A stretch of 47,467 nucleotides of DNA, filler included, from Jimgerdemannia flammicorona (Eukaryota), in assembly GCA_003990765.1 (NCBI GenBank). It is 2 parts of 2 records of this genome, joined end to end, with 100 filler letters (N's around TTAATTAATTAA, not from the genome) between each part and the next. Parts side by side here need not be neighbours in the genome. Positions count along the whole stretch, not along the records: positions 23,786 to 47,467 come from RBNJ01001081.1; 1 more part is not named here. The stretch is one strand, 5' to 3'. Made by a program: the position numbers and the translations under genes. Below are positions 12,391 through 46,300 of the stretch, piece by piece (the stretch's first letter is position 1; each line of letters starts with the position of its first letter). Below the pieces are notes generated by a model. That model did no database searches. It was not told the origin of the DNA and saw only the letters and a program-made list of their open reading frames with translations.

Positions 12391-12415
12391 TTTTTAGTGT
12401 CTGACGACTAACAAC

Positions 12416-14253: not shown

Positions 14254-14285
14254 GGATGGGGTCTCTATTGCAACATTTTTTCAAT

Positions 14286-17200: not shown

Positions 17201-17908
17201 TTCTGGTGGAGAACTTTCAGCTTGGTGAGGGTTTGGAGTATCTGCAAGGCCTAGGTGGAGACCTGTGGCCAGAAGCCTGGCAGAGGGTTGGAATTGGGGA
17301 GGAGTGGGATTGGAATGGGCTCTGGCTTTGGAGCAAAAGGGTGAGGCTGTGGCTGCCCCCCAAGTTCTGGGTAGTGTGGTGGCATATCCTATGGCGGAAT
17401 GTCATGTTGAACTATCGGTCTGGGCACTTGGTGGCTGGTGGAGTATTCAAGTACAAGGATTGTTTCAGTATTGGTCAGGAGGGCAGTATGGTACAAACAC
17501 CTGAACATTGGCTTAGCGAGTGTGACATTTTGAAGGAGTTTTGGAGATGTATTATGACCTGGTTAGGGCTGGGTGCCTTGGAGGGAGAGAAAGGGGGGAG
17601 ATGGGGAGAGCTCCACCAGTAACTAGTGGGTGGGGTTGGAGATGAATGGCTGACCCTTGGTTGGGCTTTGGCCATGTGGGTTGGGTTAGCTGGGCATTGG
17701 GTTCATGTTTTCGAGGAGGGGTGGCAGGTTGGGGTTGGGGATAAGATGGCATGTTGGGAATGATTGCTATTGGATATTTTGAATAGCTGGTGGCAAGGTT
17801 GGGGGCTGGGTGGGGGGTACTGCAGAGGTTTGGTGCAGTGTATCTCCCAGAAGAGTGGTGGGAGGATTTGGGTAGTGGGTAACTAGGTCATGCTTGGCTG
17901 GGGGGATT
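14286..17908 (+). pseudogene. LINE ORF2: AP endonuclease, reverse transcriptase and C-terminal Cys/His domain (decayed; last codons at 23572-23614)
   Basis: APE: IFSLNING, LLQDVH, GGDFN, RIDWVL, SDY. Linker: GPGHWWLNSSLL. RT: APEEDGL, PIMLLNIDCK, QHGFV, LDQEKTYDRV, GVPQGDPLSP, FADDIV. C-terminus: GGLGL, QTPEHWLSEC. Confidence 0.93.
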
Positions 17909-18140
17909 AATGTTTTTGGCATAATGTCGATCTATGCTAGGGAGGCATAACTATACTACATTTCGCATAATGTCAACTATGCTATACTCACGTGATGTCA
18001 TTCTTCGTGATAAAACACCAATAACCCCATATCACTGAAATGACCATGCATCACCCCAAAATCCTAAGAAAGAAACCTCAAATAAATGATCGATTGTTCT
18101 GTATTTGGGTGGAAACACATGGTATAAAAGACTGGCCCAA
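17909..18140 (-). repeat. Ngaro repeat B2 (232 bp)
   Basis: Direct repeat of 18425-18656. Confidence 0.95.
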
Positions 18141-23685: not shown

Positions 23686-23785
23686 NNNNNNNNNNNNNNN
23701 NNNNNNNNNNNNNNNNNNNNNNNNNNNNNTTAATTAATTAANNNNNNNNNNNNNNNNNNNNNNNNNNNNNNNNNNNNNNNNNNNN
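23686..23785. other. Artificial contig-joining linker
   Basis: 44 N + TTAATTAATTAA (stops in all six frames) + 44 N = exactly 100 bp. Confidence 0.95.
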
Positions 23786-24342
23786 TCAGCAAGGCACTTA
23801 GTGCTACATCCATATCTAGCCTAGTCCAGATAGCCCCTCACTAGTATAAATACCCCCTCCCCCAGACCTCAGAATCTCAGACTCGAACAGACTTGAACAA
23901 TCCGAAACAACTTCTGAGCACTTCCCCATAATACCCCTTCACACAAATATTCCTAGTATAGCAATATCATGAATAGCAAATAAACCTATTCCATAACCCA
24001 CAAACTACTCTTAAGTAAATCTGCTCCCTGTTAGGTCCTACTCCTAACCCCGTCACGAAATTTCCTAATTGGGTGTTGTCTGCAGCAATACGCCAATTCA
24101 ACTAAGCTGGTCTTAGTTTCTTAAACTTCCTGAAATATGGAAAATCCTGAACATCCAGAACTAGTCCGAAAAAGGACTTTGGTTGAGACGTCAACCCGAT
24201 CTTGAAATCAATAAGCGTAGAGGATGTACTCCATACGAAATTGATCTTGACCATAAGAAAATGGTCTTCCAGAATATCCAGAACTTCCAGAAAACCCTTC
24301 CAGAACTACGTAACAGTTATCTTAAAAAATAACCCTCTTATA
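23786..24342 (+). repeat. 3' portion of a G-family LTR (3' LTR or solo LTR), cut by the gap
   Basis: Matches ~42837-43382. Ends CCCTCTTATA (decayed TTACA) and is not followed by a PBS. Confidence 0.93.
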
Positions 24343-25208
24343 TATTTTGTCTGTGAACTTGGCCTGTGAACTTAATGCAACTGTCCTTCTTCTTGAATTG
24401 TTGTCCCAATTGCTGTCAGTCTCCTTGAAGTCAGTTTCTCCCCATCCTTCACAAGGAGGGTTGTCTTGTTTGAGTTCCTCAGTCTGTTGGGTTTGGCATT
24501 TCTCAGATTGAATTTTGAAAACTTTAGAGAGGCATGCATGGCATTCACTAACATGTTCCATGCAGTACATTCGAATGGAATGAGGGCATCATCCACATGA
24601 TGTATAACCATCTGCAATTCTCTTATATCAGTTTTCATCATCTTCCTTTATGGTAGTGACCTTTTGACTGGGAGGTTTGTTGGTTGATCCAAACCCTTTC
24701 TTGCCATAGTCTGTCTGGGAGAGCTCAGGGACTTCTTCAATGGTGAGATCTTGATGGATTTCTTCAATAATTGCTTGGGCAATTCTTTAGTCTATTTTGA
24801 CTTCAAATGATGTATCTCCAAAATTTCGCAAGATAATACAGATTTTGTCAGTAAATCCTTGATCAACTACTCCTCCTCCTAGCCCAATGTTAAACTCTTT
24901 GGCTAGGCTGCTTTGCTTAGCAAGGTGGATGTATATTCCTTTGGGAGCTTGCATTGCAATTCCTGTTCATACTGTAGCATTGGTACTTGGTGGAATAGTG
25001 AGGTCTTGGCTGCTGTAGAGGTCATATCTAGCATCAGTTGGATGGGCCTTAGTGGGAATAGTAGCCTTATACCATATCTTCTGTACTTTGATGACATTCT
25101 CAGGGTTTTTCTTTTCTAGACCTTTTCCAATAACAGTAATGTTCTGGTTACTGGGTTCACCTGACCTGTTTCTCTTCTCAGGGCATCTGACTGAGATGTG
25201 TCCTGCCT
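24343..25208 (-). pseudogene. dut: Fragment of a diverged relative of the G family: zinc-knuckle end, dUTPase and Cys/His linker
   Basis: AGHISVRCP...KATIPTKAHPTDARYDLYS...TGIAMQAP...GGGVVDQGF...RIAQAII...KGFGST, then KRIADGY..G*CPHSIRMYCMEHVSECHAC. Confidence 0.88.
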
Positions 25209-27269
25209 TATAAGAGGGTTGCTTTTTGGGTGACTGTTACATAGTTCTGGAAAGGTTTTCTGGAGGTTCTGGATATTCTGGAAGACTATTTTCTTATGGT
25301 CAAGATCAATTTCGTATAGAGTATGTTCTCTATGCTTATTGATTTCAAGATTGGGTTGATGTCTCAACCAAAGTCCTTTTTCGGACTAGTTCTGGATGTT
25401 CAGAATTTTCCGTATTTCAGGAAGTTCAAGAAACTAAGACCAGCTTAGTTGAATTAGCATATTGCTGCAGACAATACCCAATTAGGAAATTTCGTGATGG
25501 AGTTAGGAGTGGGACCTAACAGGGAGTGGATTTACTTAAGAGTAGTTTGTGGGTTATTAAATAGGTTTATTTGCTATTCATAATATTGCTATACTAGAAA
25601 TAGTTGTATGGAGGGATATTGTAGAGAAGTGTTCAGGAATATTCTTGTGTGTTTGAGTCTGAGATTCTGAGGTCTGGGGGAGTGGGTATTTATACTAGTG
25701 AGGGACTATCTGGACTATGCTGAATATAGATGTAGCACTAAGTGCCTTGCTGAGTCGGAATGCAGTCATATAGTACAAGTGTGATCTGACATGTCAAGAG
25801 ATCGTCTGACTGCTGAGTCAGTTCACAGTCATATCATACAAGGCTAATCTAACTATACTATGACTGCTAGGCTATTTATAGGTTTAGGCACTGTCTGGGT
25901 AGTCTTCAATGATATCACCATCGATTGCATCATCTCTGATGAAGTAGTCATCTAGGAAGAGTGGTTCGCGGATTACTTCTTCTTGTTCACTGAGATAATA
26001 ATACATTGGAACTTCATCACTATCCCACAGAATAGCATCATCTGTCTCATATGCTGGATAAGGTGTTGGTGGGTGAAGGAGGGGTGCATTGTCTTTGCTT
26101 TCATCAGATTTACTGTTTGCATACCTTCTGTAGGTTATAGCACTATGAGTCACGGGGTTGTAGTAAGCTAGTGGCTATAGTTCATGTCACTCATACTCGG
26201 GTGGTGGAGTGGTTGGTTCAATCTCGAGAGTTGTCTGGAGGTACAGATCGTATTCTCCGGTCTCTTCATTGTAGTTGAAGTAATCGGGAGTGAATGTGGG
26301 TTGGTATTCGTATCAGTGGTCATTGTCCCAATAAGTCTTGTATGCTGTTATGAATTATTGTAAGTTCATTGGCAAGATTGGCAGTGTGATCAGGGTTGGC
26401 AGAGATCCTTGGCTAGAGGTCATGTCAGCATCAGAGGGATCATTGTCTTCTGCTTTGTCTTCATCAAAGTAGATTATATCATAGATGTCCTTCATGGCAT
26501 ATCCAACTTGGGGCATTTGTAGGATGTGATCATTGGGGTGTAGGAAGGTTCTGTCTGTGGTTTTGATGTACTCGAGGTACTTGTGGTTGAGTTCTTGTAT
26601 CATGTCATCGATTTGGCCATAGGACAGGGTAGTAACCATTTTGGCTGTAGTAACTTGGAGGTGGGAAATAATGGTGCTATACTCATAGAAGAGTTCTCGA
26701 TGTTTGTGGGCGATAAGCTTCTGATGTTGAGACATCTGGGTAATGTCTGTATCATGGTGGTGTTTGATCATGTCTTCCAGGAGGTGGCCGATCTGATAGT
26801 AGCTTGAGATTTGTCCAATTCGGTGGGCCTTGCTAAGCATGTTCAGAGTATTCCATCAGGCTTCCACAAAATAGAGGGGTGCTAGGCTATGGATATTCAT
26901 GAGGGGTAGAGGGGGTGTGGCTCGGTTGACAATGGCATTCCAAATGTCAGCACGGATACGGGTATAGATCTTGGTGGTCATGTTTGTATATTTGGAAGTT
27001 GTAGTTGTTGTTTGTTTTGGTTCTCTGATTCGATACATCTCGGTGCTCGGTATATATACATTTGATCCTAATTGGTAAGATTCTGTTTATGTAAATCTTG
27101 TATTCTGTGACTTTGTATTGACTCAGCTTTGTGTGCTGTGACTTCGGTTTGACTCAGCTTCGTGATCAGGCAGGTGATTTCCAGATTTGTTCAGAGCTCG
27201 CATGTAATTTCAGTGGCTTGTTTAGAGGGTGATGTGTAATTTTGGTGGCTTGGAGGTTGTGTGCTTACA
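25209..27269 (-). repeat. G1 3' LTR (2061 bp)
   Basis: Direct repeat of 33556-35613 and inverted copy of 41332-43382. Confidence 0.95.
25884..26981 (-). pseudogene. U3-encoded ORF of unknown function (copy in the G1 3' LTR)
   Basis: 1098 bp in one frame, MTTKIY...DYPDSA*. Internal stops are sense codons in other copies. Confidence 0.8.
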
Positions 27270-27481
27270 ACTCTCTCCTTCTTAGCTTTTGACATTCTCA
27301 TCGGGACCTTTTAATTTTGTTCAGTGGTACAGGGAGAATAGGCTTACTTTTGGTTTTGCCATTTTTCCAGAGGGTCAGTATTCTTGTCTTGTTTTGCTGA
27401 GTTCTTGGTTTGGTTTGCAATAATTATAATGTTCAGGAGGATAATATATAGTATGTACAGATAGGTGCAGAGTATTTGGTT

Positions 27482-30400
27482 CTAGTTATTCAAGGAATCA
27501 TATTCCAGAACTAGGTCAGTAGCATTCTGGAGATTGGTCTTGAGTTCCCAGGTTACATTGTGGATTAGATAATCTTTCCATTTGATAAGGTACTCAGGGT
27601 GGCTCTTGTTGCCACATTTTTTGAGGATTTGTTCAACTTCATACTCTTCTTGATCATTAATAATGATAGGTGCAGGTGGTTTGGTGGTCCAGTTTGGAAA
27701 TAACTCATCATCATTCTCATTGTGTCACTTGAGACATTGAACATTAAAGACTGGGTGAATCTTAATAGTATCCAGTAGTGCCAATTTGTAGGAGGTTGGA
27801 GAGACTTATGCAATGACTTCAAATGGTCTAATGAACTTGCTGTTTAGCTTTGTAGATGGTCTGTGCTTGAGGTTGTCAACTCGGTATCCTCTGATGTCTA
27901 GTAGAACATTTTCTCCAATATCAAAGGTTTCTTCTTGGCAGTGTTGGTTAACATACTGTGACTGTTGTTCTTGAGCTTGTGATAAATTCTCGATGGCAAT
28001 CTGGCTTAGATTGTGCATTTGGAGTAAGAATTCTTCAACAGCTTCAACTGTAGAGGGTTCTTCAGTAGTTCAGATAAGTGTCAAAGGGGTGTTTGGATTT
28101 TGTCCAGTGTTGGCAAAGAATGGGGCCATTCTGAGAGAGGCTTGCTTGCTATTATTATAGGCAAACTCGACTGCAGTGAGGTTTTCATGCCAGTTATCTT
28201 GTCTGTAGGAAACATAGTTCCTTAGCATTTGTTTCAGAGTTCGGTTCATTCTTTCAGTTTGGCCATCAGTTTCTGGGTGAAAGGCTGTGGATAGTGCAAG
28301 TTTTGTTCCAAGGTGTGTATAGAGGGCTTTCCAAAAATGGCTGGTAAATTTTGAGTCTCGGTCACACAATGATCTTGAGAAGACCATAATAGTGAAAGAT
28401 ATTGTCAAACAAGAGTGTGGCTATATCTAGTGCTGTTGCAGTAGTGGTAGTAGACACAAAGTGGGCTTGTTTGCTGAGATAGTCCACAAAGACAACAATT
28501 GCATCTTTTCCGTTCTTGGTTCAGAGTAGTTATATAATGAAGTCCATAGATATTTGTTCCCAATTTGTAGATGGTACTAGGATAGAGTGAAGTAAGCTGG
28601 GTGTTGCTAGTATTGAGGACTTGTTTCATTGGTAGGCATCACAGAAAGTGATGTAGGTTTTGAGCTGATCTGCTATGTGAGGCCAATAGAAGTTTTGGGA
28701 GATAACTTCATAACATTTATCAAATCCTAAATGTCCAGCTATAGGGACATCATGACATTCAAATAGGATAGTCCTTTGGAGGTCTCGGTTGTTTGGGACA
28801 TACAGTCTGTCTTTGTAGTAGATAGCATTGTCCTTTAGTTGGTATTGATGATACTGTGTATGCTTGTCAGCATCATCACTATTCAGGATTTCTCGCAGTG
28901 CTTGAGCTTCCTTATCATCAGCACATGCTGTGATAATTTGTTCCATGATGGAGTTTGTAACCAAGGTGAGAGTTTGGATAATCTCTTTGATTGGTGGTCT
29001 GGAGATTGCATTGGCAACAATATTTTTCTTGCTGGAGCAGTACTGGATTTCATAGTCAAAGTTGGTGAAGACTTTCATCCATCTGGCCTGCTTTCAAGAA
29101 AGGGTAGCCTGTGTCTTAATATTGACTAATAATTTGTGGTCAGTCAATATGGTGAAGTGTGCTCCTTCTAGGTAGGGTTGCCATTTGATCAGAGTATTTA
29201 CAATGGCTAGTATTTCCTTCTCATGGGTTACATAGTTAATTTCAGCATCATTGAATTTGCAGGAGTGATAGGCCACAGGGTATCCTTCTTGCATGAGTAC
29301 TGCTCCAAGGGCTAGGTCAGAGGCATTAGTAGTAACTTCATATGACAGTGCAGGGTTTGCCACTTGAAGTACTAGAGTGGTTATCAGGGCATCCTTTAGT
29401 GCTTGAAAGGTGGTATCTTGCTCAGGTCCCCAAGTTACAAGATTGTTGAAGTCTTTCTCTTCTTTTATAGTCCAGGGTTGTTCTTATTTCTTGCTATGCT
29501 TGGTCATTTGGGTGAGGGTGATAGTGATTTTAGCAAAGTTGGCAACAAATCACCTATAATAGTTTGCTAATCCCAGAAATAACTGGAGGTCTTTCAGCTT
29601 CTTGGATCTGGGCCAATCCTTGATTGCAGAGATTTTGCTGGAGTCCACTTTGATTCCATTTGGAGTGATAATGTTTCCAAGGAATTGAATTTCTTTCAGG
29701 AGAAATTCGCACTTGCTGAGTTTTGCAAAGAGTCAGTTTTCTCAGAGTTTCAGTAGTACTAGTTCAAGATGTTCAAGATGTTCCTCCAGGGTTTTGCTGA
29801 AGACTAGGATGTCGTCAATATAAACAACAATGAATTTGTCTAAGTATGGATACAGAATGGTATTCATCAGTGTCTGGAAGGTTACTGGGGTATTAGTTAA
29901 GCCAAAGGGCATAACCAGGAACTCGAAGTGTCCATAGTGAGTTCAGAAAGCTGTCTTGTAGATGTCTTCTTCTTTTATAGCAATTTGCCAATAGCCATTT
30001 CACAGGTCAAAGGAGCTTATGAATTGTGGGTTAGTAAGTCTATTGAATATTTCATCAATCCTCAGTAGTGGGCAATAGTTCTTTATGGTCTGTTCATTGA
30101 GATCATGGTAGTTAATGCACATTTGTAGGTCTCCTCCTTTTTTGACAACAAAGAGGACCGGTGTGCCATAGGGTGATACACTGGGTCTGATGAATCTTTA
30201 TTCTAGGAGTTCGTCAATTTCTTTCTTGAGTGCATCAATTTCTCTTGGAGACATGTGGTAGATTGACTTGAAGGCTGGTTTGGTGTTTGGGATAGTCTTG
30301 ATGGCATGGTCTACTGCTCATTTAGGAGGTAGGCCTTTTGGGAGTTTCTTTAGGAATATGTCTCGAAATTTCTGGAGTAGTGGTCTGACATGGCTGTCAA

Positions 30401-33400
30401 CTTTGGAAAAATCTTCTTCAGAGTTCTTAGATTCTCCTTTGGATGGGCAGATGGAGATGGCGAAGAGAGGGCATTTCTTGGCCAATTTCTTAAGTTGTAG
30501 CTTATTGATGTGGGTGATCTTTGGTCCAGGGTCACCAGAATTAAGTAAGTCCTTTTTGCCTTGCAGTTTGAAGTTGTGGCATCCTTTCTTGATGGTCAGA
30601 GAATGGTTTACCCAATTGATCATAGGGTTCTCTTGTTTTAACCATGGAGTCCCAAGGATGATTTTATTGTCAGGAAGTGGTACAATTTGGAGGGTAACAT
30701 ATACTTGATAGTTGCCAATTTGGAAGAGTAGATTGTAAACTTCTTTGCTAATAACATGTGAGGTTCCATCAGCTGTAGCAACTGCTTGAGTTTGCTATAC
30801 TGGAGAGGTGAAGATCTTGAGTCTGTTGGCTGTCTCTTTATTGATAAAGTTGTCTGAGGCACCACTGTCTATCATAATCTTGACAGGTGCTTGGTTGACA
30901 AAAGCCTTAAGTGTGAGCAGTTTGTCTGATCCAATGGTGGTGATTTCAGTTATAGGAGCTTTCCTTTTATTAGTTCTTCTTTGTGCCAGTTCATTGACAC
31001 AAGAGAAGCAATCATCAATCATTTGGGAAGAGTACATTCCAATGCCATGAGGGCATCGGCCACTTGGTATATATCCATCTTCAATCTTCTTGTAGAATTG
31101 TTCTTCTTTGCTCATGGTAGATTGGGCTGGGGCCTTGTTTGATGAGCCAAATCCTTTGGATCCTTGGATGGTGGGCAGTAGTTCAGGGACTTCCTTGACT
31201 GTCAGGGTTGACTCGATTTTTTTGAATAGGATCTGAGTGATGCAGAAACCATTAGAGATCTTGAAGGGTGTCCAACTGTGGTTTCGGATGAGGACAATAA
31301 TTTCGCCTGTGTAATCCTCATCAATGACTCCTTCTACTGAGAGTCCTTTCAATGCTAGGCTGCTGCGACAGCATATTCTTCCAACATGTCCTTCAGGGAT
31401 TTGGATACTGATTTCTGTGTAGACTTGTTTGACTTCTCGGTTGAAAACTGTAGCTTCTTCGGCTGCATACAGGTCATATCTAGCTGCTTTCTGACTTCCT
31501 TTGGTTGGGGCCTTAGCAGTTTGTCTTAACTTCACAAAGTCTAGTATTCTGGTAGTCAGGTTGTTGAGGTGGTGCAGAGTGGTAACAGTTGTTCTTGTTG
31601 CTGTTCGGGGTTTTTAGTTAGGGCAGGCGCTGGTCATATGTCCTGTCTTTCAGCAATAGAAGCATGCTCCACTTCTTCGAAGTTCATTCCTTTCACCTTC
31701 AGTAAGTTTCTTGAAGGTACTTGGCTGGGTGGGTTCATGATTTCTGGGTGTCCCAGAGGTGGATGTGGATGGAGCTTGGGATGCTTCATGCTTGGGTTCT
31801 TCTTTCTTGGTCCAAGTCCTTTTCTTGTTGTTGAATTGTCTTTGGGGCAGAATTGGTCCAGCTGTTAGGATTCGCTTGACCATAGTCTTGATTCTTACCA
31901 GGCACCATTATTAGTGATCACAACCAACTGGGTGGCCTTATTCTCAGATTTTTCTAATAAGCCATTCAGGTAGGGCATCGAATAAATGGTCTGCTCTTGT
32001 ACCATTTTGTGTTTCATCATTGGTGATATATCCTAGGCCAACAGTATTCAGGAGTGACTCGAGTTTTGTACAGAAGGTTTCGAATTCTTCTTTGTCATGT
32101 ACATCGAATTTGAGGTTGCAGAGTTTTACTTGGGATTCAGCAATCATGGTTTTGCTGTAGTATTGGGCAATCATGAGTTGTTTGAGTTCAGGGGCTGCAG
32201 GATGGGCTCCATATCCTGGGGCATTGTTTGCTACATTCTGAGCAACTACTGCAGGTTGGGTATCCCATGTGAGGGGTTTTTCAGGAAGGGTTCACCACCA
32301 TTCTTCAGCAGGTTCTCAGAAGAATGTAACATCTCAGCGGACATAGGCTGTAGTGGTAGCAAAGAGTTGTTCCAGAGTGTGGTCTTGATTGTTTGTCAGA
32401 ATGTGGTCAGTAACTCGCTCATTTGTCCATTGATTGGCTTTGAAGTTAGTGTCAACTACACTAATGAAGCTTTGGACTTCTTGTGCAGTACCATTGAAGG
32501 TAGGTAGGCTCAGATTTTTGGTAGGTCAGGTCTGTTCAGCTAAGGTAGTAATGATTGCTGCCATTATGGCTACCTAGACTATGAGGTCTAGAATCTGTTG
32601 GTTCACCATGTTGTTTACTGGAGGTGGTTGGACTACTGGTACTACTTGAGGTACTGGTGCAGAGTGTGATGGGGTTCTTTGGGTCTGTATAAGTTGCTGA
32701 AGTAGTAGTTGTGGATCTGGAGTAAGGGCTTGATAGATAGCTGTTTGTTACTGTGTAGGTGTATTTTGTCCTGATGGAGGTACTTCACCTTTGGTAGTAT
32801 ATCTGGGATCGAATTCACTAAGATACTCCTCCTCTTCTTCAGTTTGGTCCCCATGTAATTGGGTTTGCTTGGTGTCAAAGTAGATGGAATCAGTTATATA
32901 TCTGATTTCAGATGGACTTAATTCAAGGTCAAGTTCAGGTTTGGTATTGGTTTCAGATTCAGGTAGGATTGTAGTAGAGCCTGCTTCAGGTTCAGAGTCA
33001 GGTAGTTGATGAAGAGTTTCTCTTGCTTCTTCTTTAAGAATATGGCAGACCTTGCTGTTCTGGAATCGGTAGTATAATGTGGTCTTGGTCCTGGTATGGT
33101 GAAAATCGGTAGAGTTGAGCCACTTGACTACAGAGGCTTGAGCTTTGTAAGGAACTAAGGCTAGAAAGACTGCTGCTGGTTGTCCTAGGTCACTTGGGTT
33201 TATGGAGCTGACAAAACTCTTGTTGAGAAGAGTAAAGAAGGCTTCAATAAGACCTTCTTCATCTTGACTTGCTGGGTGTAGTGCAAGGAGTTCGGTGAAT
33301 AGGGTTTCACCTATTTGCTTGTTTAGTCAGAGTACTTCTTTTTTTGAATGAAGTTTGTCCCACTTGTTGTAGGTGTGGAGGTCAAATTGTCCTTGTACGT

Positions 33401-33540
33401 CAGGTTCAATTCTCTCCAGATTGTCAGATGGTTCGGATAAATTCCAGTTCAGAGGTTGGGCTTTATACCAACTTATAGGAATTCGCAGAGGGGTTTGTAG
33501 TAGGGTTAGGAAGCATCTTGAAGCAGAATTGGATTGTAAA
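27482..33540 (-). pseudogene. gag-pol: G1 gag-pol (Gag-dUTPase-PR-RT-RH-IN-chromodomain), decayed
   Basis: GACFYC; dUTPase ARYDLYA, RSSLALKG, KGFGSS; protease [19 protein letters not shown]; RNase H TTNASDLALGAVL, TDHK; integrase GHLGFDK, DRDSKFTS, FHPETDGQTER; chromodomain YLIKWK. Confidence 0.95.
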
Positions 33541-33555
33541 CCACTGCTACCAAGT

Positions 33556-35613
33556 TGTAAGAGAGTTGCTTTTTTAGGATAACTGTTACATAGTTCTGGA
33601 ATGGTTTTCTGGAGGTTCTAGATGTTCTGGAAGACCATTTTCTTATGGTCAAGATCAATTTTGTATGGAGTACATCCTCTAAACTTATTGATTTCAAGAT
33701 CAGATTGATGTCTCAACCAAAGTCCTTTTTTTGGATGTTTAGGATTTTCCGTATTTCAGAAAGTTCAAGAAACTAAGACCAGCTTAGTTGAATTGGTATA
33801 TCGCTGCAGACAATATCTAATTAGGAAATTTCGGAATGGGGTTAGGAGTGGGACCTAATGGGGAGTGGATTTACTTAAGAGTGGTTTGTGGGTTATTAAA
33901 TAGGTTTATTCGCTATTCATAATATTGCTATATGTACTAGGAGTTGGTTGTGTGAAGAGATATTTGTGGGGAAGTGTTCAGAAATGTTCTTGTGTATTTG
34001 AGTCTGAGATTCTGAGGTCTGGGGAAGGGGTATTTATACTAGTGAGGGGCTATCTGGACTATACTAGATGTGGATGTAGCACTAAGTGCCTTACTGAGTT
34101 GGAATGCAGTCATGTAGTATAAGTGTGATCTGACATGTCAAGAGATCATCTGACTGCTAAGTTAGTTTACAGTCACATTGTACAAGGCTAATCTAACTAT
34201 ACTATGACTGCTAGGCTATTTATAGGTTTAGGCACTGTCTAGGTAGTCTTTGATGACATCACCATCGATTGCATCATCTCTGATAAAGTAGTTATCTAGG
34301 AAGAGTGGTTCGCAGATTACTTCTCCTTGTTCGCTGAGGTAATAATACATTGGAACTTCATCACCATCCCACAGAATAGCATCATCTGTCTCATATACTG
34401 AATAAGGTATTGGTGGGCAAAGGAGGGGTGTATCATCTTCACTTTCATTGAATTTGCTGTCTGTATACCTTCTGTAGGTTACAGCACTATAAGTTGCAGG
34501 GTTGTAATAAGCTGGTGGCTGTGGTTCATATTGCTCATACTCGGGTAGTGGAGTGGTTGGTTCAATCTCAAGGGTTGTCTGGAGGTACAGGTCATGTTCT
34601 CTGGTCTCTTCATTGTAGTTAAAGTAATCAGGAGTGAACGCAGGTTGGTATTCATGCCAGTGGTCATTGTCCCAATAAGTCTCATATGCTGTTATGAATT
34701 ATTGTAAGTTCATTGGTAAGGTTGGTGGTGTGATCAGGGTTGGCAGAGATCCTTGACTAGAGGTCATGTCAGCATCAGAGGGATCATTATCTTCTGCTTT
34801 ATCTTCATCGAAGTGGATTATATCATAGATGTCCTTCATGGTGTATCCAACTTGGGACATTTGCAGAATATGATCATTGGGGTGTGGGAAGGTTCTGTCT
34901 GTAGTTTTGGCATACTCGAGGTACTTGTGGTTGAGTTCTTATATCATGTTGTCGATTTGGCCATAGAATAGGGTAGTAACCATTTTGGCTGTAGTAACTC
35001 GGAGGTAGGGAATAATGGTGCTATACTCATAGAAGAGTTCTCAATGTTTGCAGGCAATGAGCTTCTGGTGTTGAGACATCTGGGTGATGTCTGTATCATG
35101 GTGGTGTTTGATCATGTCTTCCAGGAGGCAGCCGATCTGGTAGTAGCTTGAGATTTGTCTGATTCAGTGGGCCTCACTAAGCATGTTCAGAGCATTCCAT
35201 CGGGCTTCCATAAAGTAGAGGGGTGCTAGACTATGGATATTCATGAGGGGCAGAGGGGGTGTGGCTTGGTTGATAATGGCATTCCCAATGTCAGCACGGA
35301 TACAGGTATAGATCTTGGTGGTTATGTTTGTGTGTTTGGAAGTTGTAGTTATTATTTGTTTTGGTTCTCTGATTCGACGCATTTCAGTACTTGGTATATA
35401 TGTATTTGATCCTGATTGGTAAGATTCCATTTGTATAAATCTTGTATTCTGTGACTTCATATTGACTCAGCTTTGTGTGCTGTGACTTCGGTTTGACTCA
35501 GCTTCATGATCAAACAGGTGATTTCCAGATTTATTCAGAGGTCATGTGTGATTTCAGTGGCTTGTTCAGAGGGTGACATGTAATTTCAGTGGCTTGGAGG
35601 TTGTGCACTTACA
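33556..35613 (-). repeat. G1 5' LTR (2058 bp)
   Basis: TG...CA termini; followed by the PBS on the minus strand. Confidence 0.95.
34228..35325 (-). pseudogene. U3-encoded ORF (copy in the G1 5' LTR)
   Basis: Same 1098-bp frame. The start has decayed to ATA. Reads MEARWNALN through a position that is TGA in two other copies. Confidence 0.78.
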
Positions 35614-38600
35614 CTATGTCCACTGAGTTGTTATATTCTTCCGAAAACCTGCCAAAGAATAGTGGTGAACCCTTTCTGAAAAACCTCTCACATAGGATAT
35701 CTGACCTGCAGTAGTTGCTCAAAATACAGCAAACAATGCCCCAGGATATGGAGCCTATCCTGCAGCCCCTGGACTAAAACAACTCATAATTGCTCAATAC
35801 TGCAGTAAAACCATGATTGCCGAATCTTGAGTAAAACTCTGCAACCTCAAATTTTATATATATGGCAAGGAAGAATTTGAAACCTTCTGTACAAAACTTG
35901 AGTCACTCCTGAACACTGTTAGCCTAGGATACATTGCCAATGATAAAGCACAAAATGGTATAAGAGAAGACTATCTATTTGATGCACTATCTGAATGGCT
36001 TACCAGAAAAATCTGAGAATAAGGATGCCTAGTTAGTTGTGATCACTAACAATGGTGCCTAGTAAGAATCAAGACTATGGTTAAGCAAATCCTAACAGCT
36101 AGACCAATTCTGCCCCAAAGACAATTCAACAATAAGAAAAAGACTTAGACCAAGAAAGAAGAACTCAAGCATGAAGCATCCCAAGCTCTCTCAACATCCA
36201 CCTCATGGACACCCAGAAATCATGAACCCATCTAGCCAAGTACCTTCAAGAAACTCACTGAAGGAACTTCGAAGAAGTGGAGTATGCTTCTATTGCCAAA
36301 AAACAGGACACATGACCAGTGTATGCCTACCCCAACTGAAAACCCCAAACAGCAACATGAGCAACTGTTACTACTCTGCACCATCTCAATAACCTGACTA
36401 CCAGAATACTGGACTTTGTCAAGTTAAGACAAACTACCAAGGCCCTAACCAAAGGAAGTCAAAAGGCAGCTGGATATGACCTGTATGCAGCCAAAGGAGC
36501 TATAGTCTCCAATCAAGAAGTCAAGTAAGTCTACACAGGAATCAGCATCTAAATTCCCAAAGGATATATTAGAAGAATATGCTGTTGCAGCAGCCTAGCA
36601 TTGAAAGAACTCTCAGTAGAAGGAGGAGTCATTGATAAAGATTACACAGGTGAAATTATTGTCCTTATCTGAAACTATAGCTGGATACCCTTCAAGATCT
36701 CTATTGGTTTCTGCATTGCCCAGATCCTATTTGAGAAAATCAAGTCAACTCTGACAGTCAAGGAAGTCCCTGAACTACTACCTACCATCTAAGGATCCAA
36801 AGGATTTGGTTCATCAAACAAGGCCCCAGCCCAACCCACCATGAATAAAGAAGAACAATTCTACAAGAAAATTAAAGACAGATATATACCAAGTGGCTGA
36901 TGCCCACATGGCATTAGAATGTACTCTTTCCAAATGATCAATAATTACTTCTCTTGTGTCAATAAACTGGCTCAAAGAAGAACCAACAGAAGAAAAGCTC
37001 CTACAACTGAAATTACCACCATTGGATCAGACAAACTGCTTATACTCCAAGCTTTTGTCAACTGAGCACCTGTCAAGATTATGATAGACAGCAGTGCCTC
37101 AGACAACTTTATCAATGAAGAAACAGCCAACAGACTCAAGGTCTTCACCTCTCCAGTACAACAAACTCAAGCAGTTGCTATAGCTGATGGAACCTCACAT
37201 GTCATTAGCAAGGAAGTCCGCAATCTACCCTTCTGAATCAGTGACTATCGAGTACATATTACCCTCTATATCATACCACTTCCTGATAATGAAATCATCC
37301 TTGGAACCCCATGGTTGAAATAAGAGAACCCCATGATTGATTGGGTAAACCATTCTCTGACCATTAAGAAAGGATGCCATAACTTCAAACTGTAAGGTAA
37401 AAAAGACCCACTCAGCTCTAGTGACTCTGGACTAAAGATCACCCACATCAACAAGCTGCAGCTCAAGAAATTGGCCAAGAAATGTCCACTCTTTACTATC
37501 TCCATCTGCCCATCCAAAGGAGAACTTGAGAACTCAGAAGAAGACTTTTCCAAAGTTGATAGCCATGTTAGACCACTACTCCAGAAATTTCAAGATATAT
37601 TTCCAAAGAAACTTCTGAAAGGCCTATCTCCCAAATGAGCAGTAGACCATGTCATCAAGACCATTCCAGATGCCAAGCCAGCCTTCAAGTCAATCTACCA
37701 TATGTCTCCAAGAGAAATTGATGCACTCAAGAAAGAAATCAATGAACTCCTAGAACAAGGATTCATCAGACCCAGTATATCACCCTATAGTGCACCAGTC
37801 TTCTTTATTGTCAAGAAAGGAGAAGACTTGTGAATGTGTATTGATTACCATAACCTCAATGAACAGACTATCAAGAACTGTTGTCCACTACTCAGAATTG
37901 ATGAAATATTTGACAGGCTTACCAACCCACAATTTATGAGCTCTTTTGACCTATGAAATAGTTACTAGCAAATTGCCATAAAAGAAGAAGACATCTACAA
38001 GACAGCCTTCCAAACCTGCTATGGATATTTCAAATTCCTAATTATGCCTTTCAGCTTAACTAATGCTCCTGCAACCTTCTAGACCCTGATGAATACCATC
38101 CTGCACCCATATCTGGACAAATTCATTATTGTCTACATTGATGATATCTTAGTCTTCAGCAAAACCCTGGAGGAACATCTTGAACACCTTGAACTAGTAC
38201 TACTGAAACTCTGAGAAAACTGACTCTTTGCAAAACTCAACAAGTGTGAATTCCTCCTGAAGGAAATTCAATTTCTTGGACACATTGTTACACCAAATGG
38301 AATCAAAGTAGACTCTAGCAAAATCTCCACAATCAAGGATTGGCCCAGACCCAAGAAGCTGAAAGACCTCCAGTCATTCCTGGGATTAGCAAACTATTAT
38401 AGGTGATTTGTTGCCAACTTTGCTAAAATTGCTACTTCCCTTACCCAAATGACTAAGTACAATAAGAAAGAAGAACAGCCCTGGACTATGAAATAAGAAA
38501 AAGACTTCAATAATCTTATAAATTAGGGATCTGAGCAAGATACTGCCTTTCAAGCACTAAAGGATGTCTTGATAACCACTCCAGTACTTCAAGTGGCAAA

Positions 38601-41331
38601 CCCTGCCCTACCATATGAAGTTACTACTGATACCTCTGACCTAGCCCTTGGAGCAGTACTTATGCAAGAAGAACACTCTGTGGCCTATTACTCTTGCAAG
38701 TTCAATGATGCCAAAATCAACTACATAACTCATGAGAAGGAAATGTTAGTCATTGTAGACACTCTGATCAAATGGCAACTATACCTAGAAGGAGCACACT
38801 TCACTGTACTGACTGACTACAAGTCATTAGTCAATATCAAGACCCAGGCTACTCTTTCTCGAAAGCAAGCCAGATGAATGAAAGTTCTCACCAACTTTGA
38901 CTATAAAATCCAGTACTGCCCTGGCAAGGAAAATATTGTCACCAATGCAATCTCCAGACTACCAATTGAAGAAGTTATCCAAACTCTCACCTTGGTTACC
39001 AACTCCATCATAGAACAAATTATCACTGCATGTACTGATGATAAAGAAGCTTAAGTACTTCAAGAAATTCTGAAATATGACAATACTGATAAGTATATCC
39101 AGTATAATCAATACCAACTCAAGGATAATGCCATCTACTACAAGGACAGATTATATGTTCCAAACAACCGAGACCTCTGAAGAACTATCCTATTCAAATA
39201 TCATGATGCCCCTACAGCTGGATATTTAGGATTCAACAAATGCTATGAAGTTATCTCCCAAAACTTCTATTGGCCCTATATGGCAGATCGGCTCAAGACC
39301 TATATCACTTCCTGTGATGCCTGCCAACAGAACAAGTCCTCAACACTAACAAAACCTGGTCTACTCCACCATATCCCAGTACTATCTGCTAATTGAGAAT
39401 AAATCTCTATGGACTTCATTATATAACTACCTCAAACCAAGAATGAGAAAGATGCAATTGTTGTCTTCATAGACTATCTCAGCAAACAAGCCCACTTTGT
39501 GCCAACTACTACCACTACAACAGCACCAGACATAGCTACACTCTTGTTTGACAATATCTTCCAATACCATGGTCTTTCTAAGATCATTATTAATGACTGA
39601 GACCCGAAATTTACCAGCCATTTTTGGAAAGCCCTCCATACATACCTTGAAATGAAACTTGCACTATCTATAGCCTTTCACTCTGAAACTGATGGCCAAA
39701 CTGAAAGAATGAACTGAACTCTGGAACAAATGCTAAGGAACTATATTTCCTACAGAAAAGATGATTGGTATAAACACCTCACCATAGTCGAGTTTGTCTA
39801 TATATAATAACAGCAAGCAAGCCTCTCAGGGAATGACCTCATTCTTTGCCAATATAGGACAAAACCCAAACACTCCTCTGACACTTATCCGAACCACTGA
39901 CGAATCCTCCACAGTTGAAGCTGTTGAAGAATTCCTACTCCAAATGTGTAATCTAAGCCAGATTACAATTGAGAACTTATTACAAGCTCAAGAACAACAG
40001 TCACAGTATGTTAACCAATACTACAGAGAAGAAACCTTCGATATTGGAGAAAAAGTTCTACTAGATATCCAAGGATACTGAGTTGACAACCTTAAGTACA
40101 GACCATCTACAAAGCTGAACAGTAAGTTTATTAGACTATTCAAAGTTATTGTACAAGTCTCTCCTACTTTCTACAAATTAGCACTACCAGATACCATTAG
40201 GATTCACTCAGTCTTTAATGTCCAATGTCTCAAGTGATATAATGAGAATGATGATGAGCTATTCCCAAATCAGAGCACCGAACCACCTATACCTATCATC
40301 ATTAATGACTAAGAAGAATACAAAGTCAAACAAATCCTCAACAAACATGGCCACAAGAACTGCCCTGAGTACCTTGTCAAATGGAAAGGTTATCCAATCC
40401 ATGATGCAACCTGGGAACCCAAGACCAATCTCCAGAATGCTACTGACTTAGTTTAGGAATATGATTCCTTAAATAACTGAAACCCAAATTCTCCTGCACC
40501 TATCAGTTCATACTATATATTACACCTCCTGAACATATTAATTATCATGAACCAAATCAAGAACTCAGTAAGACAAGATAAAAGAATATTGACTCTCTAG
40601 AAAAAATAGCAAAACTAAAAGCCAACCTATTCTCTCTATACCATTAGTGGGAAACGAGGCATAGATATTTAAGAAGATTCCTTAGAGGAAATTCTCCAGC
40701 AGTGAATGACATCAGAATCACTTCCAGCATATGGCATTGAATATATGACCCTTTAATGTGTGAATCTAATATATTAGGCAACTATACTATGAGCATGCTA
40801 CTTTCTGAAAAAATAGACTTTATTGGACTTTTGATCTTCCAAATGGTATAACAATACTAGAACAAAATTAGAAGGCCCCAATGAGGATATTGAAAGCTAA
40901 GAAGGGGAGAGTTGTAAGTACATAATCTCTAAGCCACCGAAATCATACATCACCCTCTGAACAAGCTACTGAAATCACATGTAACCTCTGAATAAATCTG
41001 GAAATCACCTGCAAGATCATGAAGCTGAGTCAAACTGAAGTCATAGCATATAAAGCTGAGTCAATATAAAGTCACAGAACACAAGACTTATACAAATGGA
41101 ATTTTACCAATCAGGACCAAATGCATATATACTGAGCACCAAGACATATTCCAAAACAAACAACAACTACAACTTCTGAATATACACAAATATGACCACT
41201 GAGATCTATAACTGCATCTGTACTGACATTTGGAATGCCATTATCAACTGAGCCACACCCCCTCTGCCCCTTATGAATATCCATAGCTTAGCACCTCTCT
41301 ACTTCATGGAAGCCCAATGGAATGCCCTAAA
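35614..41331 (+). mobile_element. G2: 5'-truncated G-family copy (mid-gag to partial 3' LTR)
   Basis: Begins at CTATGTCC, equivalent to ~44607 in G3. Contains dUTPase, PR, RT ([10 protein letters not shown]), RH, IN and chromodomain EEYKVKQIL..EYLVKWKGYPIHDATWEP (~40310-40430). PPT AAGAAGGGGAGAGT at 40899-40912. Confidence 0.94.
40913..41331 (+). repeat. G2 3' LTR, first 419 bp, interrupted by G3
   Basis: Starts TGTAAG after the PPT, matches 41332-~41758, and stops inside the U3 ORF. Confidence 0.93.
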
Positions 41332-41619
41332 TGTAAGCGCACAACCTCCAAGCCACCGAAATTACACATCACCCTCTGAACAAGCCACCGAAATTACATG
41401 CGACCTCTGAACAAATCTGGAAATCACCTGCTTGATCACGAAGCTGAGTCAAACCAAAGTCACAGCACACAAAGCTGAGTCAATATGAAGTCATGGAACA
41501 CAAGATTTATACAAACAGAATCTTACCAATCAGGACCAAATGCATATATACCGAGCACTGAGATGTATCGAATCAGAGAACCAAAACAAACAACAATCAC
41601 AACTTCCAAATACACAAAT

Positions 41620-42706
41620 ATGACCACTGAGATCTACAACCATATCTGCGCTGACATTTGGAATACCATTGTCAACCGAGCCACACCCCCTCTGCCCCTC
41701 ATGAATATCCATAGTCTGGCACCCCTCTACTTTGTGGAAGCCTGATGGAATACCCTGAACATGCTTAGCGAGGCCTACCGAATTGGACAAATCTCAAGCT
41801 ACTACCAGATTGGCCGCCTCCTGGAAGATATGGTTGAACACCACCATGATACAGATATTACCCAGATGTCTCAACACCAGAAGCTCATCGCCTACAAACA
41901 TCGAGAACTCTTCTATGAGTACAACACCTTTATTCCCTACCTCCGAGTCACTACCAGCGAAATGGTTGCTACTCTGTCCTATGGCCAAATCGATGACATG
42001 ATACAAGAACTCAACCACAAGTATCTCAAATACGTCCAGACCACAGACAGAACCTTCCCGCACCCTAATGACCATATCCTGCAAATGCCTCAAGTCGGAT
42101 ATGCCATGAAGGACGTCTATGATATAATCCACTTTGACGAAGATGAAGCAGAAGACAATGATCCCTCTGACGCTAACATGACCTCTAGCCAAGGATCTCT
42201 GCCAACCCTGATCACACCGCCAAACTTGCTGAAGAACTTGCAACAATTCATAACTACATACGAGACTTATTGGGACAATGACCACTGGCACGAATACCAA
42301 CCCATGTTCACCCCCGATTACTTCAATTACAATGAAGAGACCAGAGAATACAACCTATACCTCCAGACAACCCTCAAGATTGAACCAACCACTCCACCAC
42401 CTGAGTACGAGTGACATGAACCACAGCTGCTAGCTTACTACAATCCTGCAACTCATAGTGCTGTAATCTATAGAAGATATACAGACAGTGAATCCAGACA
42501 ATATACCCATCCTTCACCCACCAACACCTTATCCAGCCTACGAGACAGACAATGCTATCCTGTAGGATGGTGACAAAGTTCCAATGTATTATTACCTCAG
42601 CGAACAAGGAGAAGTAATCTGTGAACCACTCTTCCTAGATGACTACTTCATCAGAGATGATGCAATTGATGGTGATATCATCGAAGACTACCCAGACAGC
42701 GCCTAA
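41620..42706 (+). pseudogene. U3-encoded ORF (copy in the G3 5' LTR), consensus ~365 aa
   Basis: Includes track ORF 41761-42414. TGA stops at 41743 and 42412 are probably CGA-derived. An 11-bp deletion lies near 42495 relative to the G1 copies. Confidence 0.8.
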
Positions 42707-42895
42707 ATCCATAAATAGCCTAGCAGTCATAGTATAGTTAGATTAGTATTGTGCGACGTGACTGCGAACTGACTCAGCAGTCAGACGATCTCTTGACATA
42801 TCAGATCACACTTGTACTACATGACTGCATTCCGACTCAGCAAAGCACTTAGTGCTACATCCATATTCAATATAGTCTAGATAGCCCCTCACTAG

Positions 42896-42903
42896 TATAA
42901 ATA
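42896..42903 (+). promoter_or_regulatory. Candidate LTR TATA box (TATAAATA); poly(A) signal AATAAA at 43019-43024
   Basis: Both motifs are conserved in all four LTR copies that cover this region and lie downstream of the U3 ORF. Confidence 0.55.
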
Positions 42904-43385
42904 CCCCCTCCCCCAAACCTCAGAATCTCAGACTCGAATACACAAGAACATTCCTGAATACTTCCCCACAATATCCCTTTACACAACTACTCCTAGTATA
43001 GCAATATCATGAATAACAAATAAACCTATTCCATAATCCATAAACCACTCTTAAGTAAATCTGCTCCCTGTTAGGTCCTACTCCTAACCCCGTCACGAAA
43101 TTTCCTAATTGGGTATTGTCTGCAGTGATACACCAATTCAACTAAGCTGGTCTTAGTGTCTTGAACTTCCTGAAATACGGAAAATCCTGAACATCCAGAA
43201 CTAGTCCAAAAAAGGACTTTGGTTGAGATGTCAACCCAATCTTGAAATCAATAAGCATAGAGGATATACTCCATACGAAATTGATCTTGACCATAAGAAA
43301 ATAGTCTTCCAGAATATCCAGAATATCCAGAAAACCTTTCCAGAACTACATAACGGTTACCCTAAAAAGTAACCCTCTTACAACT

Positions 43386-43397
43386 TGGTAGTAGTGG
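43386..43397 (+). promoter_or_regulatory. Primer-binding site, tRNA-iMet-like
   Basis: TGGTAGTAGTGG (TGGTAGCAGTGG in G1), 3 nt after the LTR. Confidence 0.75.
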
Positions 43398-43399
43398 TT

Positions 43400-46300
43400 T
43401 ACAATCCAATTCCGCTTCAAGACGCTTCCTCACCCCACTACAAACCCTTCTGTGAATTCCTACAAGTTGGTATAAAGCCCAATCTCTAAACTGGAATTAA
43501 TCCGAACCATCTGACAATCTGGAGAGAATTGAACCTGATGTATAAAGACAATTTGACCTCCACACCTGCAACAAGTGGAACAAACTTCATTCCAAGAAAG
43601 AAATACTCCAGTTAAATCAGCAAATAGGCAAAACCCTATTTACTGAACTCCTTACACTACACCCAGCAAGTTAAGATGAAAAAGGTCTTATTGAAGCCTT
43701 CTTTACTCTTCTCAACAAGAGTTTTGTCAGCTCCACAAATCCGAGTGGCCTAGGACAACCAGCAGCAGTCTTTCTAGCCTTAGTTCCTTACGAAGCCCAA
43801 GCCTCTGTAGCCAAGTCGCTCAACTCTACCGACTTTCACCATACCAGGACCAAGACCGCATTATACTACCGATTCCAGAACAGTAAGGCCTGCTATATTC
43901 TTAAGGAAGAAGCAAGAAAAACCCTTCATCAACTACCTGACCCTGAACCTGAAGCAGGCCCTACTATAGCCCTACCTAAATCTGAAACCAATACCGAACC
44001 TGAACTTGACTTTGAATTAAGTCCGTCTGAAATCAGATATACAACTGATTCTGTCTACTTTGATGCCAAGCAAACCCAATTACAGGGGGACCAAACCGAA
44101 GAAGAGGAGGAGTATCTCACCAAATTCGATCCCAGATACACCACTGAAAGAGACACACACCCATCAGGACAGAATACACCTACACAGCAACAAACAGCTA
44201 TCTATCAAGCCCTCACTCCAGACCCACAACTACTACTCCAGCAGCTTACACAGACCCAAAGAACCCCATCACACTCTGCACCAGTACCTCAAGTAGTACC
44301 AGTAACACCACTACCAGCAGTCCAGCCACCTCCAGTAAACAACATGGTAAACCAACAGATTCTTAACCTCACAGCCCAGGTAGCCATAATGGCAGCAACC
44401 ATTACTACCTTAGCTAAACAGACCTGACCTACCAAAAATCTGAGCCTACCTACCTTCAATGGTACCATACAAGAAGTCCAAAGCTTCATTAGTGTAGTTG
44501 ACACCAACTTTGAAGCCAATCAATAGACCAATGAGCAAGTTGCTGACCACATTCTGACAAACAATCAAGACCACACCCTGGAACAACTCTTTGCTATAAC
44601 TACAGCCTATGTCCACCAAGTTGTTACATTCTTCCAAGGACCTGATGAAGAATAGTGGTGAACCCTTCCTGAAAAACCCCTCACATGGAATACCTGACCT
44701 GCAGTAGTTGCTCAGAATGCAGCAAACAATGCCCCAGGATATGGAGCCCATCCTGCAGCCCCTGGACTCAAACAACTCATGATTGCTCAATATCGCAGTG
44801 AAACCATGATTGCTCAATATCGCAGTGAAACCATGATTACCGAATCTCGAGTAAAACTCCGCAACCTCAAATTCAATGTACATGGCAAAGAAGAATTTGA
44901 AACCTTCTGTACAAAACTCGAGTCACTCCTGAACACTGTTGGCCTAAGATACATTGCCAATGATGAAGCACGAAATGGTATAAGAGCAGACCATTTATTT
45001 GATGCCCTGCCTGAATGGCTTACTAGAAAAATCTGAGAACAAGGCCGCCCAGTTAATTGTGATCACCAACAATGGTGCCTAGCAAGAATCAAGACCATGG
45101 TTCAGCGAATCCTAATAGCTGGACCAATTCTGCCCTGAAGACAATTCAACAACAAGGAAAAGACTTGGACCAAGAAAGAAGAACTCAAAGCATGAAGCAT
45201 CTCGAGCTCCCTCCACATCCACCTCTTGGATACCCAGAAATCATGAACCCACCCAGCCAAGTACCTTCAAGAAACTTACTGAAGGCAAAAGAAATGAACT
45301 TCGAAGAAGTGGAGTATGCTTCCACTGCTGAAAGACAGGACATATGGCCAGTGCCTGCCCCAACTGAAAACCCCAAACAGTAACACGAGCAACTGTTACC
45401 ACTCTGCACCACCTCAACAACCTGACCACCAGAACACTGGACTTTGTCAAGTTAAGACAAACTGCTAAGGCCCCAACCAAAGGAAGTCAAAAAGCAGCTA
45501 GATATGACCTGTATGCAGCTGAAGAAGCTACAGTTTCCAACCAAGAAGTCAAACAAGTCTATACAGGAATCAGTATCCAAATCCCTGAAGGACATGTTGG
45601 AAGAATATGCTGTCGCAGCAGCCTAGCACTAAAAGGACTCTCAGTAGAAGGAGGAGTTATTGATGAAGATTACACAGGCGAAATCATTGTCCTCATTCGC
45701 AACCACAGTTGGACACTCTTCAAGATTTCTATTGGCTTCTGCATCACCCAGATCCTATTCGAAAAAATCAAGTCAACCCTGACAGTCAAGGAAGTCTCTG
45801 AACTACTGCCCACTATCCGAGAATCTAAAGGATTTGGCTCATCAAACAAGGCCCCAGCCCAACCTACCATGAGCAAAGAAGAACAATTCTACAAGAAGAT
45901 CGAAGATGGATATGTACCAAGTGGCTGATGCCCTCATAGCATTGGAATGTACTCTTCCCGAATGATTGATGATTGCTTCTCTTGTATCAATGAACTGGCT
46001 CAAAGAAGAACCAACAGAAGGAAAGCTCCTACAACTGAAATTACCAGCATTGGATCAGACAAACTGCTCACCCTTAAGGCTTTTGTCAATGGAGCACCTG
46101 TCAAGATTATGATAGACAGTGGTGCCTCAGGCAACTTCATTAATGAAGAGATAGCCAACAGACTCAAGGTCTTCACCTCTCCAGTACAACAAACTCAAGC
46201 AGTTGCTACAGCTGATGGAACCTCACATGTTATTAGCAAAGAAGTCTGCAATCTACCCTTCCGAATTGGCAACTACCAAGTACATATTACCCTCCAAATC

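Follow-up and report, generated by a model that had tools for sequence, protein, structure and literature searches.

The sag gene of mouse mammary tumour virus (MMTV) is encoded in the U3 region of the long terminal repeat (LTR) of a betaretrovirus (PMC12548423), a layout that is known from a few retroviruses. The stretch of Jimgerdemannia flammicorona DNA analysed here (GenBank assembly GCA_003990765.1; 47,467 nt, hereafter the window) contains copies of a chromovirus, a Ty3/gypsy-type element with a dUTPase domain, whose LTRs share a reading frame of 365 codons in U3. No description of a protein gene lying wholly inside a Ty3/gypsy or Ty1/copia LTR was found in the open-access literature searched. 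As with sag, the frame lies in U3, is for that reason carried by each of the two LTRs and is located 3′-terminally on the genomic RNA, and transcription-factor sites lie in U3 too. The LTR gene has no sequence relation to sag, with no Pfam family at E up to 10, and its product has no membrane segment; its carrier is a chromovirus without env, and a superantigen function would be meaningless outside vertebrates.

In foamy viruses (tas/bet) and in HIV (nef), 3′ genes run into U3, and foamy viruses express their acidic transactivator, Tas, from an internal promoter. The present frame resembles these genes as a 3′ accessory gene overlapping U3, and the proposal made below likewise involves a second promoter and an activator of acidic type. 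The viral genes, however, begin in the internal region and merely overlap U3, and no sequence or fold relation to them was found in searches of Pfam, PDB and Foldseek.

Additional open reading frames (ORFs) of LTR retrotransposons include the aORFs of plants (PMC7264820), ORF0 of Retrosat2 (PMC3485330), CERV of Cer1 (PMC10309623) and the 'add. ORF' of fungal chromoviruses (PMC2864245). Like the frame described here, these are lineage-specific extra ORFs that lack homologues, have an unknown or regulatory function, and evolve faster than pol. Such extra ORFs are described as lying outside the LTRs, whereas the present ORF starts 289 nt inside the LTR, past the polypurine tract (PPT), and stays entirely within it, which sets it apart from the aORF class. 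Phrases for an LTR position have 0 occurrences in the text of the plant aORF review (PMC7264820), and the legend in PMC2864245 gives none. The LTRs of the elements Cassandra, Helenus and Ajax contain small-RNA genes (PMC10886601). There too a gene-like sequence is embedded in the LTR, and so is doubled with each insertion, but the sequences are 5S- or small-RNA-like and belong to non-autonomous elements, whereas in the present case a 1.1-kb protein gene accompanies gag and pol. The carrier itself can be compared with PosPlaTy3-3 of Postia placenta, a fungal Ty3/gypsy chromovirus with a dUTPase at the Pol N-terminus (PMC2864245). In both, the dUTPase precedes the protease and the integrase ends in a chromodomain, but a long, gene-bearing LTR is not mentioned for elements of that type in the excerpted text of PMC2864245.

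We consider, with a probability of roughly 0.6, that the LTR of this dUTPase-bearing chromovirus holds a true protein gene of the element, 365 codons long and wholly in U3. LTRs are usually treated as non-coding control regions, and are masked by annotation pipelines and taken as neutral in age estimates. If the proposal is correct, neutral divergence could not be assumed along the whole LTR in such families, and solo LTRs could stay expressed genes. Chromoviruses could then carry retrovirus-like 3′ accessory genes without env, and the locus would represent a tractable case of a mobile element gaining a regulatory protein. Should each LTR be a self-contained gene, this would be the first U3-encoded protein gene of a non-retroviral LTR retrotransposon, and solo LTRs could go on serving the family once the coding body has been lost.

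A shared reading frame within U3

LTR copies were located by BLAST of the flagged LTR (41332-43382) against the window. Three full LTRs of ~2.05 kb each and two fragments were identified (Table 1). Element G1 (25211-35613) is flanked by both of the minus-strand full LTRs. Element G3 lies on the plus strand, with its 5′ LTR at 41332, and continues past the window end. Element G2 (35614-41331) is older; the G3 insertion lies 419 nt inside the G2 3′ LTR and interrupts the LTR gene of that copy.

A sense-strand frame of 365 codons was common to the three full LTRs, and part of it was present in the 419-nt G2 fragment, which retains the first 46 codons (from 41192) with one stop. The frame was 1098 nt long in both G1 LTRs. 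In G3, an 11-nt gap is present near 42495, after which the frame reads on in another phase with one further stop; the stops before the gap are at codons 42 and 265. The internal stops numbered 4 in the G1 5′ LTR, 5 in the G1 3′ LTR and 3 in G3, the last in addition to the frameshift. An earlier, sequence-only reading of this locus had described a shared frame in three full LTRs and one partial LTR (the latter being 40913-41331), of 1098 bp in both G1 LTRs and with an 11-bp deletion in G3, and the aligned LTRs confirmed this description.

A stop codon occurred in at least one of the three full copies in 10 codon columns, and only the terminal column was a stop in all copies. Each of the remaining 9 columns was a sense codon in another full copy, as the sequence-only reading had noted for the internal stops that it checked. 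Three of these 9 stop columns were common to two copies. The other five frames contained 9-38 stops, and 2-21 columns were stops in all three copies in the other frames. As a chance control, 2000 Markov-1 shuffles were generated per copy and the best sense frame was scored. The frame had 5 and 6 stops in the G1 copies and 8 in G3, compared to a mean of 18-20 (minimum 7-8) in the best sense frame of the shuffles. The fraction of shuffles at or below the observed stop count was 0 for both G1 copies and 0.001 for G3. The frame is real and exceeds chance.

The ATG at 41620 lies 289 nt into the LTR, the start of which adjoins the PPT, and the stop codon of the gene lies 190 nt upstream of the sole TATAAATA, which marks the end of U3 (Table 1). 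The gene is wholly within U3. About 500 nt separate the pol stop of G1 (~27482) from the downstream ATG of the LTR gene, with the PPT in this interval, and the LTR gene is the 3′-most reading frame on the genomic RNA, downstream of the PPT. Given this location, the established course of reverse transcription leaves a copy of the gene in each LTR, and the expectation that the gene is duplicated at each insertion follows from it.

The codon at 41485 reads ATG, ATG, ACA and ATA in the four copies, the variation that had led the sequence-only reading to favour a start at 41620. A related protein (P0005, see below) begins at the same methionine. As a second in-frame ATG is present at 41563 in three of the four copies, the start codon is not fixed by the window alone, and that part of the earlier proposal stands less firmly.

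Coding signal, relatives and the predicted protein

A codon-usage table was trained on 1749 gag-pol codons of these elements. In each of the three copies, the score of the frame was between +0.15 and +0.20 bits per codon, and the other five frames scored -0.08 to -0.62. The non-ORF LTR flanks reached at most 0.001, and a G2 pol stretch that was not part of the training set scored +0.105 in its best frame. The U3 frame is the sole frame with gag-pol-like codon usage.

The search for relatives of the predicted protein covered 5.8 billion clustered proteins as well as 1.84 billion representatives, and gave exactly two, P0004 and P0005, both of them single-member clusters on contigs of ~1 kb from other samples. 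P0005 (128 aa) shared 84% identity with the G1 copy P0002 and 90% with G3, began at the same methionine, and had arginine at codons 42, 54 and 95, where window copies carry stops. P0004 (247 aa) was 62-64% identical and 80% similar, and was open from codon 115 to the same C-terminal motif. Its alignment contained two gaps only, both in frame, and the conservation was blocky. Neutral change to the divergence of P0004 would be expected to introduce 4-7 stops, with a probability of no stop of 0.001-0.015, frameshifts not counted.

No further relatives were obtained in the other searches. A search for proteins of near length gave 1 match among 386 candidates and none beyond it. Among shorter proteins, the alignment query gave none in the 30-69 aa range, and the P0002 query gave one match (P0005) in the 30-199 aa range. 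The JGI metagenome contigs gave 15 pattern matches, of which 0 were confirmed, and 0 matches to a back-translated pattern; the viral contigs gave 12 pattern matches, again with 0 confirmed, and 0 matches in a further search. In the window outside the LTR gene copies, tblastn matches were at chance level only (E 0.36 or worse). In the contigs of four sequencing runs (3774, 440, 583 and 25 records), the LTR including the ORF was covered in 4 of 4 runs, and contig ends in two of the runs (X2 and X4) carried extra letters at the site of the 11-nt gap of G3.

To set a neutral baseline, changes private to one G1 LTR, which arose post-insertion, were used. The ratio of synonymous to other changes was 43:34 for the differences between G3 and G1, and 44:62 for the private changes. 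We regard it as quite likely that the frame represents a true gene on which selection acts or has acted. The sequence-only reading, which took the frame for an element gene wholly in U3, was borne out by the position relative to the PPT and TATAAATA, by the gag-pol codon usage and by the two open relatives.

The predicted protein is acidic, with an isoelectric point (pI) of 4.0-4.7, and Trp/Tyr/Phe make up 13-15% of its residues. The C-terminal two-thirds carry a net charge of -2 to -9 per 30 residues, with 13-15% Trp/Tyr/Phe. P0005, which represents the N-terminal part, is a near-neutral head, predicted to be helical, with a pI of 6.3 and 9 Arg. Cysteine was absent from the undecayed relatives. 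The first ~140 residues were predicted to be helical, and AlphaFold2 modelled the N-terminal 128 aa as a helical bundle with a predicted local distance difference test score (pLDDT) of 56.8. For the full protein, the AlphaFold2 model built with 5 sequences had a mean pLDDT of 29.9, and the ESM Atlas model of P0004 had a pLDDT of 0.39, without a usable feature match. The C-terminal two-thirds were drawn mostly as non-helical coil at very low confidence, and no fold was obtained for this part. There was no relation to the element's own gag (best E 5.5). The protein is an orphan that is acidic, aromatic-rich and predicted to be helical in its N-terminal region. By composition, the modelled helical head and the acidic aromatic tail resemble acidic activators, adaptor or decoy proteins, a resemblance only.

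No membrane-like stretch was identified, the best 19-residue hydropathy being 1.23. In agreement with the earlier view that the protein lacks a transmembrane helix and is not env-like, an env-like or secreted protein was ruled out by this lack of a hydrophobic stretch. A PPEY motif of the PPxY type, which the sequence-only reading had also pointed out, was present in 2 of the 4 sequences covering the site; it was lost in P0003 (one G1 copy) and absent in P0004. The idea of a PPxY late domain was discarded because the motif is not conserved.

Possible expression of the gene and alternative explanations

The 5′ part of U3 contains paired TGAGTCA units upstream of a TATATA element, and a second, inverted pair precedes the main promoter of the element (Table 1). 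From this layout we infer two putative promoters that share a single type of enhancer. At the very start of U3 (41349-41398), upstream of the TGAGTCA units, a direct repeat of 18 nt without mismatches was noted at 32-nt spacing.

The genomic RNA has the gene at a single site near its 3′ end, past the PPT, and from the way in which LTRs form it follows that reverse transcription puts copies of the gene in both LTRs and that solo LTRs retain it. In the mechanism that we propose, a separate promoter in the 5′-terminal part of U3 (the TGAGTCA unit pair, then TATATA) would probably drive transcription of the gene, and the message would probably end at the LTR's own poly(A) signal (AATAAA). The protein would act in trans for the element family as a regulatory or adaptor factor, for which the leading guess would be an acidic, transactivator-like protein. 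By analogy with known activators, such a transactivator-like function is possible but unlikely. The anti-silencing, trans-activator and host-modulator roles put forward in the sequence-only reading are candidates only, as neither a protein family nor a fold pointed to any of them. In its fullest form, the proposal would make each LTR, solo LTRs included, a self-contained gene (paired enhancer unit, TATA element, ORF and poly(A) signal) encoding an acidic factor that acts in trans to activate the LTRs of the family or to relieve their repression. This form is tentative, and we would put it well below an even chance.

The two routes by which the message could arise were compared on the motifs in the window, and a promoter of its own in U3, in preference to a spliced message, was judged to have about an even chance. 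The alternative, that the same gene is translated from a spliced subgenomic RNA driven by the main LTR promoter, is a good deal less probable. It would be the route of retroviral 3′ genes and would suit a gene at the 3′ end of the genomic RNA, ~500 nt past the pol stop; CERV of Cer1 comes from a spliced message (PMC10309623), and the first ATG beyond an AG at 41575-41576 is that at 41620. However, no pyrimidine tract or clear branch point was seen ahead of this AG, no obvious donor was seen in the leader (43383-43700), and TATATA with the paired upstream units would provide a simpler route.

The copies in the window are heavily decayed. The G1 LTR pair differed by 10%, with 109 transitions and 1 transversion in the ORF part, and the rates of change were highest at CG (0.18-0.24), followed by CA/TG (~0.10). 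The observed/expected ratio of CpG (CpG o/e) in the gypsy copies was 0.08-0.33. This decay fits a methylation-type process rather than repeat-induced point mutation (RIP). RIP was rejected as the cause of decay, as the TpA/ApT index (0.80-0.84) and the (CpA+TpG)/(ApC+GpT) index (1.31-1.42) in G1-G3 were on the non-RIP side of the usual cut-offs.

Several findings weigh against a functional element gene, and most of them would also be expected of a frame that was once coding, either as a captured host or foreign gene or as a de novo ORF, and that has been useless to the element and is decaying in U3. All four copies of the gene in the window are broken, and these copies are pseudogenes. The DNA divergence was 10-13% in the ORF, which is not below the 8-12% in the LTR flanks, and the 9 single transversions between G3 and G1 were split 3/3/3 over the codon positions. 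The synonymous contrast given above was weak and borderline (odds ratio of 1.78, one-sided p 0.039, two-sided p 0.07), and transition decay dominates the window copies, swamping any older signal. The only two relatives among the 5.8 and 1.84 billion proteins are both fragments, and their openness is subject to an ascertainment bias, as protein databases take in open frames only. None of the 3 proteins searched matched a Pfam family at E up to 10, and a profile search of PDB sequences gave 0 relatives. Structure prediction with Foldseek, which the sequence-only reading had named as a check, delivered the helical N-terminal bundle, but Foldseek against PDB gave 0 matches at E up to 0.001, with just generic or designed helical bundles and no confident fold. 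In addition, TGAGTCA was not enriched across the window (13 found, 10.7 expected), and the 8 occurrences in the LTRs are copies of one sequence. The summed contig depth over R/U5 was ~2x that of the ORF part in runs X1 and X2; depth is not copy number, and the excess could reflect LTR variants without the gene. Finally, a TAA at codon 209 was common to both G1 LTRs, and G1 may have moved with a broken gene, or the stop may be a parallel hit.

We nevertheless consider a useless, decaying relic unlikely. P0004, at 62-64% identity, has remained open for 247 codons to the same end with in-frame gaps only, for which the neutral probability is 0.001-0.015, and the codon usage of the frame is gag-pol-like. 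The stop at codon 209 can be parallel, as C-to-T change at CA affects ~10% of sites and 3 of the 9 stop columns are found in two copies.

An origin of the gene as a nested cassette, a mobile or recombined piece that was not originally part of the LTR, entered an ancestral copy of it and has the inverted units (41443-41510 and 42742-42841) as its ends, is quite improbable. The units are imperfect inverted repeats of 30-37 nt (70-77% complementary) on either side of the ORF, the right-hand units are locally G/T-rich within an A/C-rich strand, the R/U5 depth excess would fit such an origin, and one X2 contig departs from the LTR after 41362, but no target-site duplication was seen at the arms, the arms are doubled on both sides with each pair at enhancer distance from a TATA element, no transposase-like or other Pfam family was matched, the gene is in sense with the element's codon usage, the segment is in all 4 of the LTR 5′ parts of the window and, even with this origin, it now moves as a part of the LTR.

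The carrier element and the rest of the window

The coordinates of the LTR gene, the candidate control elements and the carrier are listed in Table 1. The aligned LTR copies of the window start with TGTAAG and end with TTACA; the 3′ LTR of G1 has TA instead of CA at its 3′ terminus. Along G1 and G3, the pol domains were in gypsy order, with protease families, RVT_1 (E 2e-35) and Integrase_H2C2 (E 1.5e-14). The chromodomain (PF00385) was also found in G2 (E 1e-13), immediately ahead of the pol stop. The paired LTRs, primer binding site, PPT, gypsy-order pol and C-terminal chromodomain on the integrase are all present, and the carrier was classified as a chromovirus because its internal part holds dUTPase, protease, reverse transcriptase and integrase, then the chromodomain. 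When the dUTPase-protease piece was used as an Atlas query, it matched only retroviral dUTPase-protease clusters, with scores of 0.88 or lower. A fungal host is likely from the dUTPase, the match of the chromodomain to the general Pfam Chromo model, the CpG-type decay and the sequencing runs with partial matches to the window, most of which are soil metagenomes (at most 0.25 of the sampled words).

Table 1. Positions of the LTR gene, its candidate control elements and the parts of the carrier element in the window
Feature	Position (nt)	Strand	Remarks
LTR gene, G3 copy, 1087 nt	41620-42706	+	Stops at 41743-41745, 42412-42414 and 42563-42565; terminal stop 42704-42706
Two tandem 31-nt units, each TGAGTCA then AGTCAYG	41437-41498	+	47-113 nt upstream of TATATA; in 4/4 LTR 5′ parts
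TATATA, candidate core promoter of LTR gene	41545-41550	+	70 nt before ATG 41620; kept in 4/4 copies
Two more TGAGTCA-type units, inverted	42740-42842	-	54-156 nt upstream of main TATAAATA
TATAAATA, main promoter of element	42896-42903	+	Marks U3 end
AATAAA, putative poly(A) signal in R	43019-43024	+	
5′ LTR of G3, 2051 nt, TG...CA	41332-43382	+	BLAST and alignment; sits in the 3′ LTR of the older copy G2
5′ LTR of G1	33556-35613	-	Gene copy 35325-34228, 4 internal stops
3′ LTR of G1	25209/25211-27269	-	Gene copy 26981-25884, 5 internal stops
5′ fragment, first 419 nt of G2 3′ LTR	40913-41331	+	Truncated by G3 insertion
3′ LTR fragment, last 555 nt (promoter, R, U5)	23786-24340	+	Ends short of ORF
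Primer binding site	43386-43397	+	Begins TGGTAG, 3 nt past LTR
Polypurine tract	27271-27283	-	1 base ahead of G1 3′ LTR
pol end with chromodomain PF00385, G1	27482-27724	-	E 5e-12
dUTPase domain PF00692	30795-31613	-	E 4e-30; directly before protease

G1 adjoins the interior of G2 at 35614, yet the sequence on its far side (below 25209) does not belong to G2, and no target-site duplication was seen at the G1 flanks. For these reasons, the G1/G2 junction suggests a rearrangement or a misassembly. At 23686-23785, two N runs surround a TTAATTAATTAA linker, the window being two joined assembly pieces. As the linker and the N runs adjoin the LTR fragment at 23786, this fragment is truncated by the assembly gap and not by biology. 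The segment between the end of this LTR and G1 (24341-25208) showed a weak match of 70% (24564-24699) to the dUTPase-protease region of G1, and is probably the remnant of a related element.

No tRNA genes or Rfam families were found in the window. A block of ~6 kb at 12000-18000 had a GC content of 0.49-0.51, a GC skew of +0.4 to +0.5 and a CpG o/e of 0.14, and contained long stop-free frames on both strands, without tandem repeats. A Pfam scan of 2 pieces in this block and 2 pieces at 18-23.6 kb identified no family. A Ty1/copia element with long frames is present at 4959-9375 on the minus strand, with RVT_2 (E 1e-72), integrase core, gag_pre-integrase and copia-type gag domains. Its CpG o/e was 0.65, and it is less depleted than the gypsy copies.

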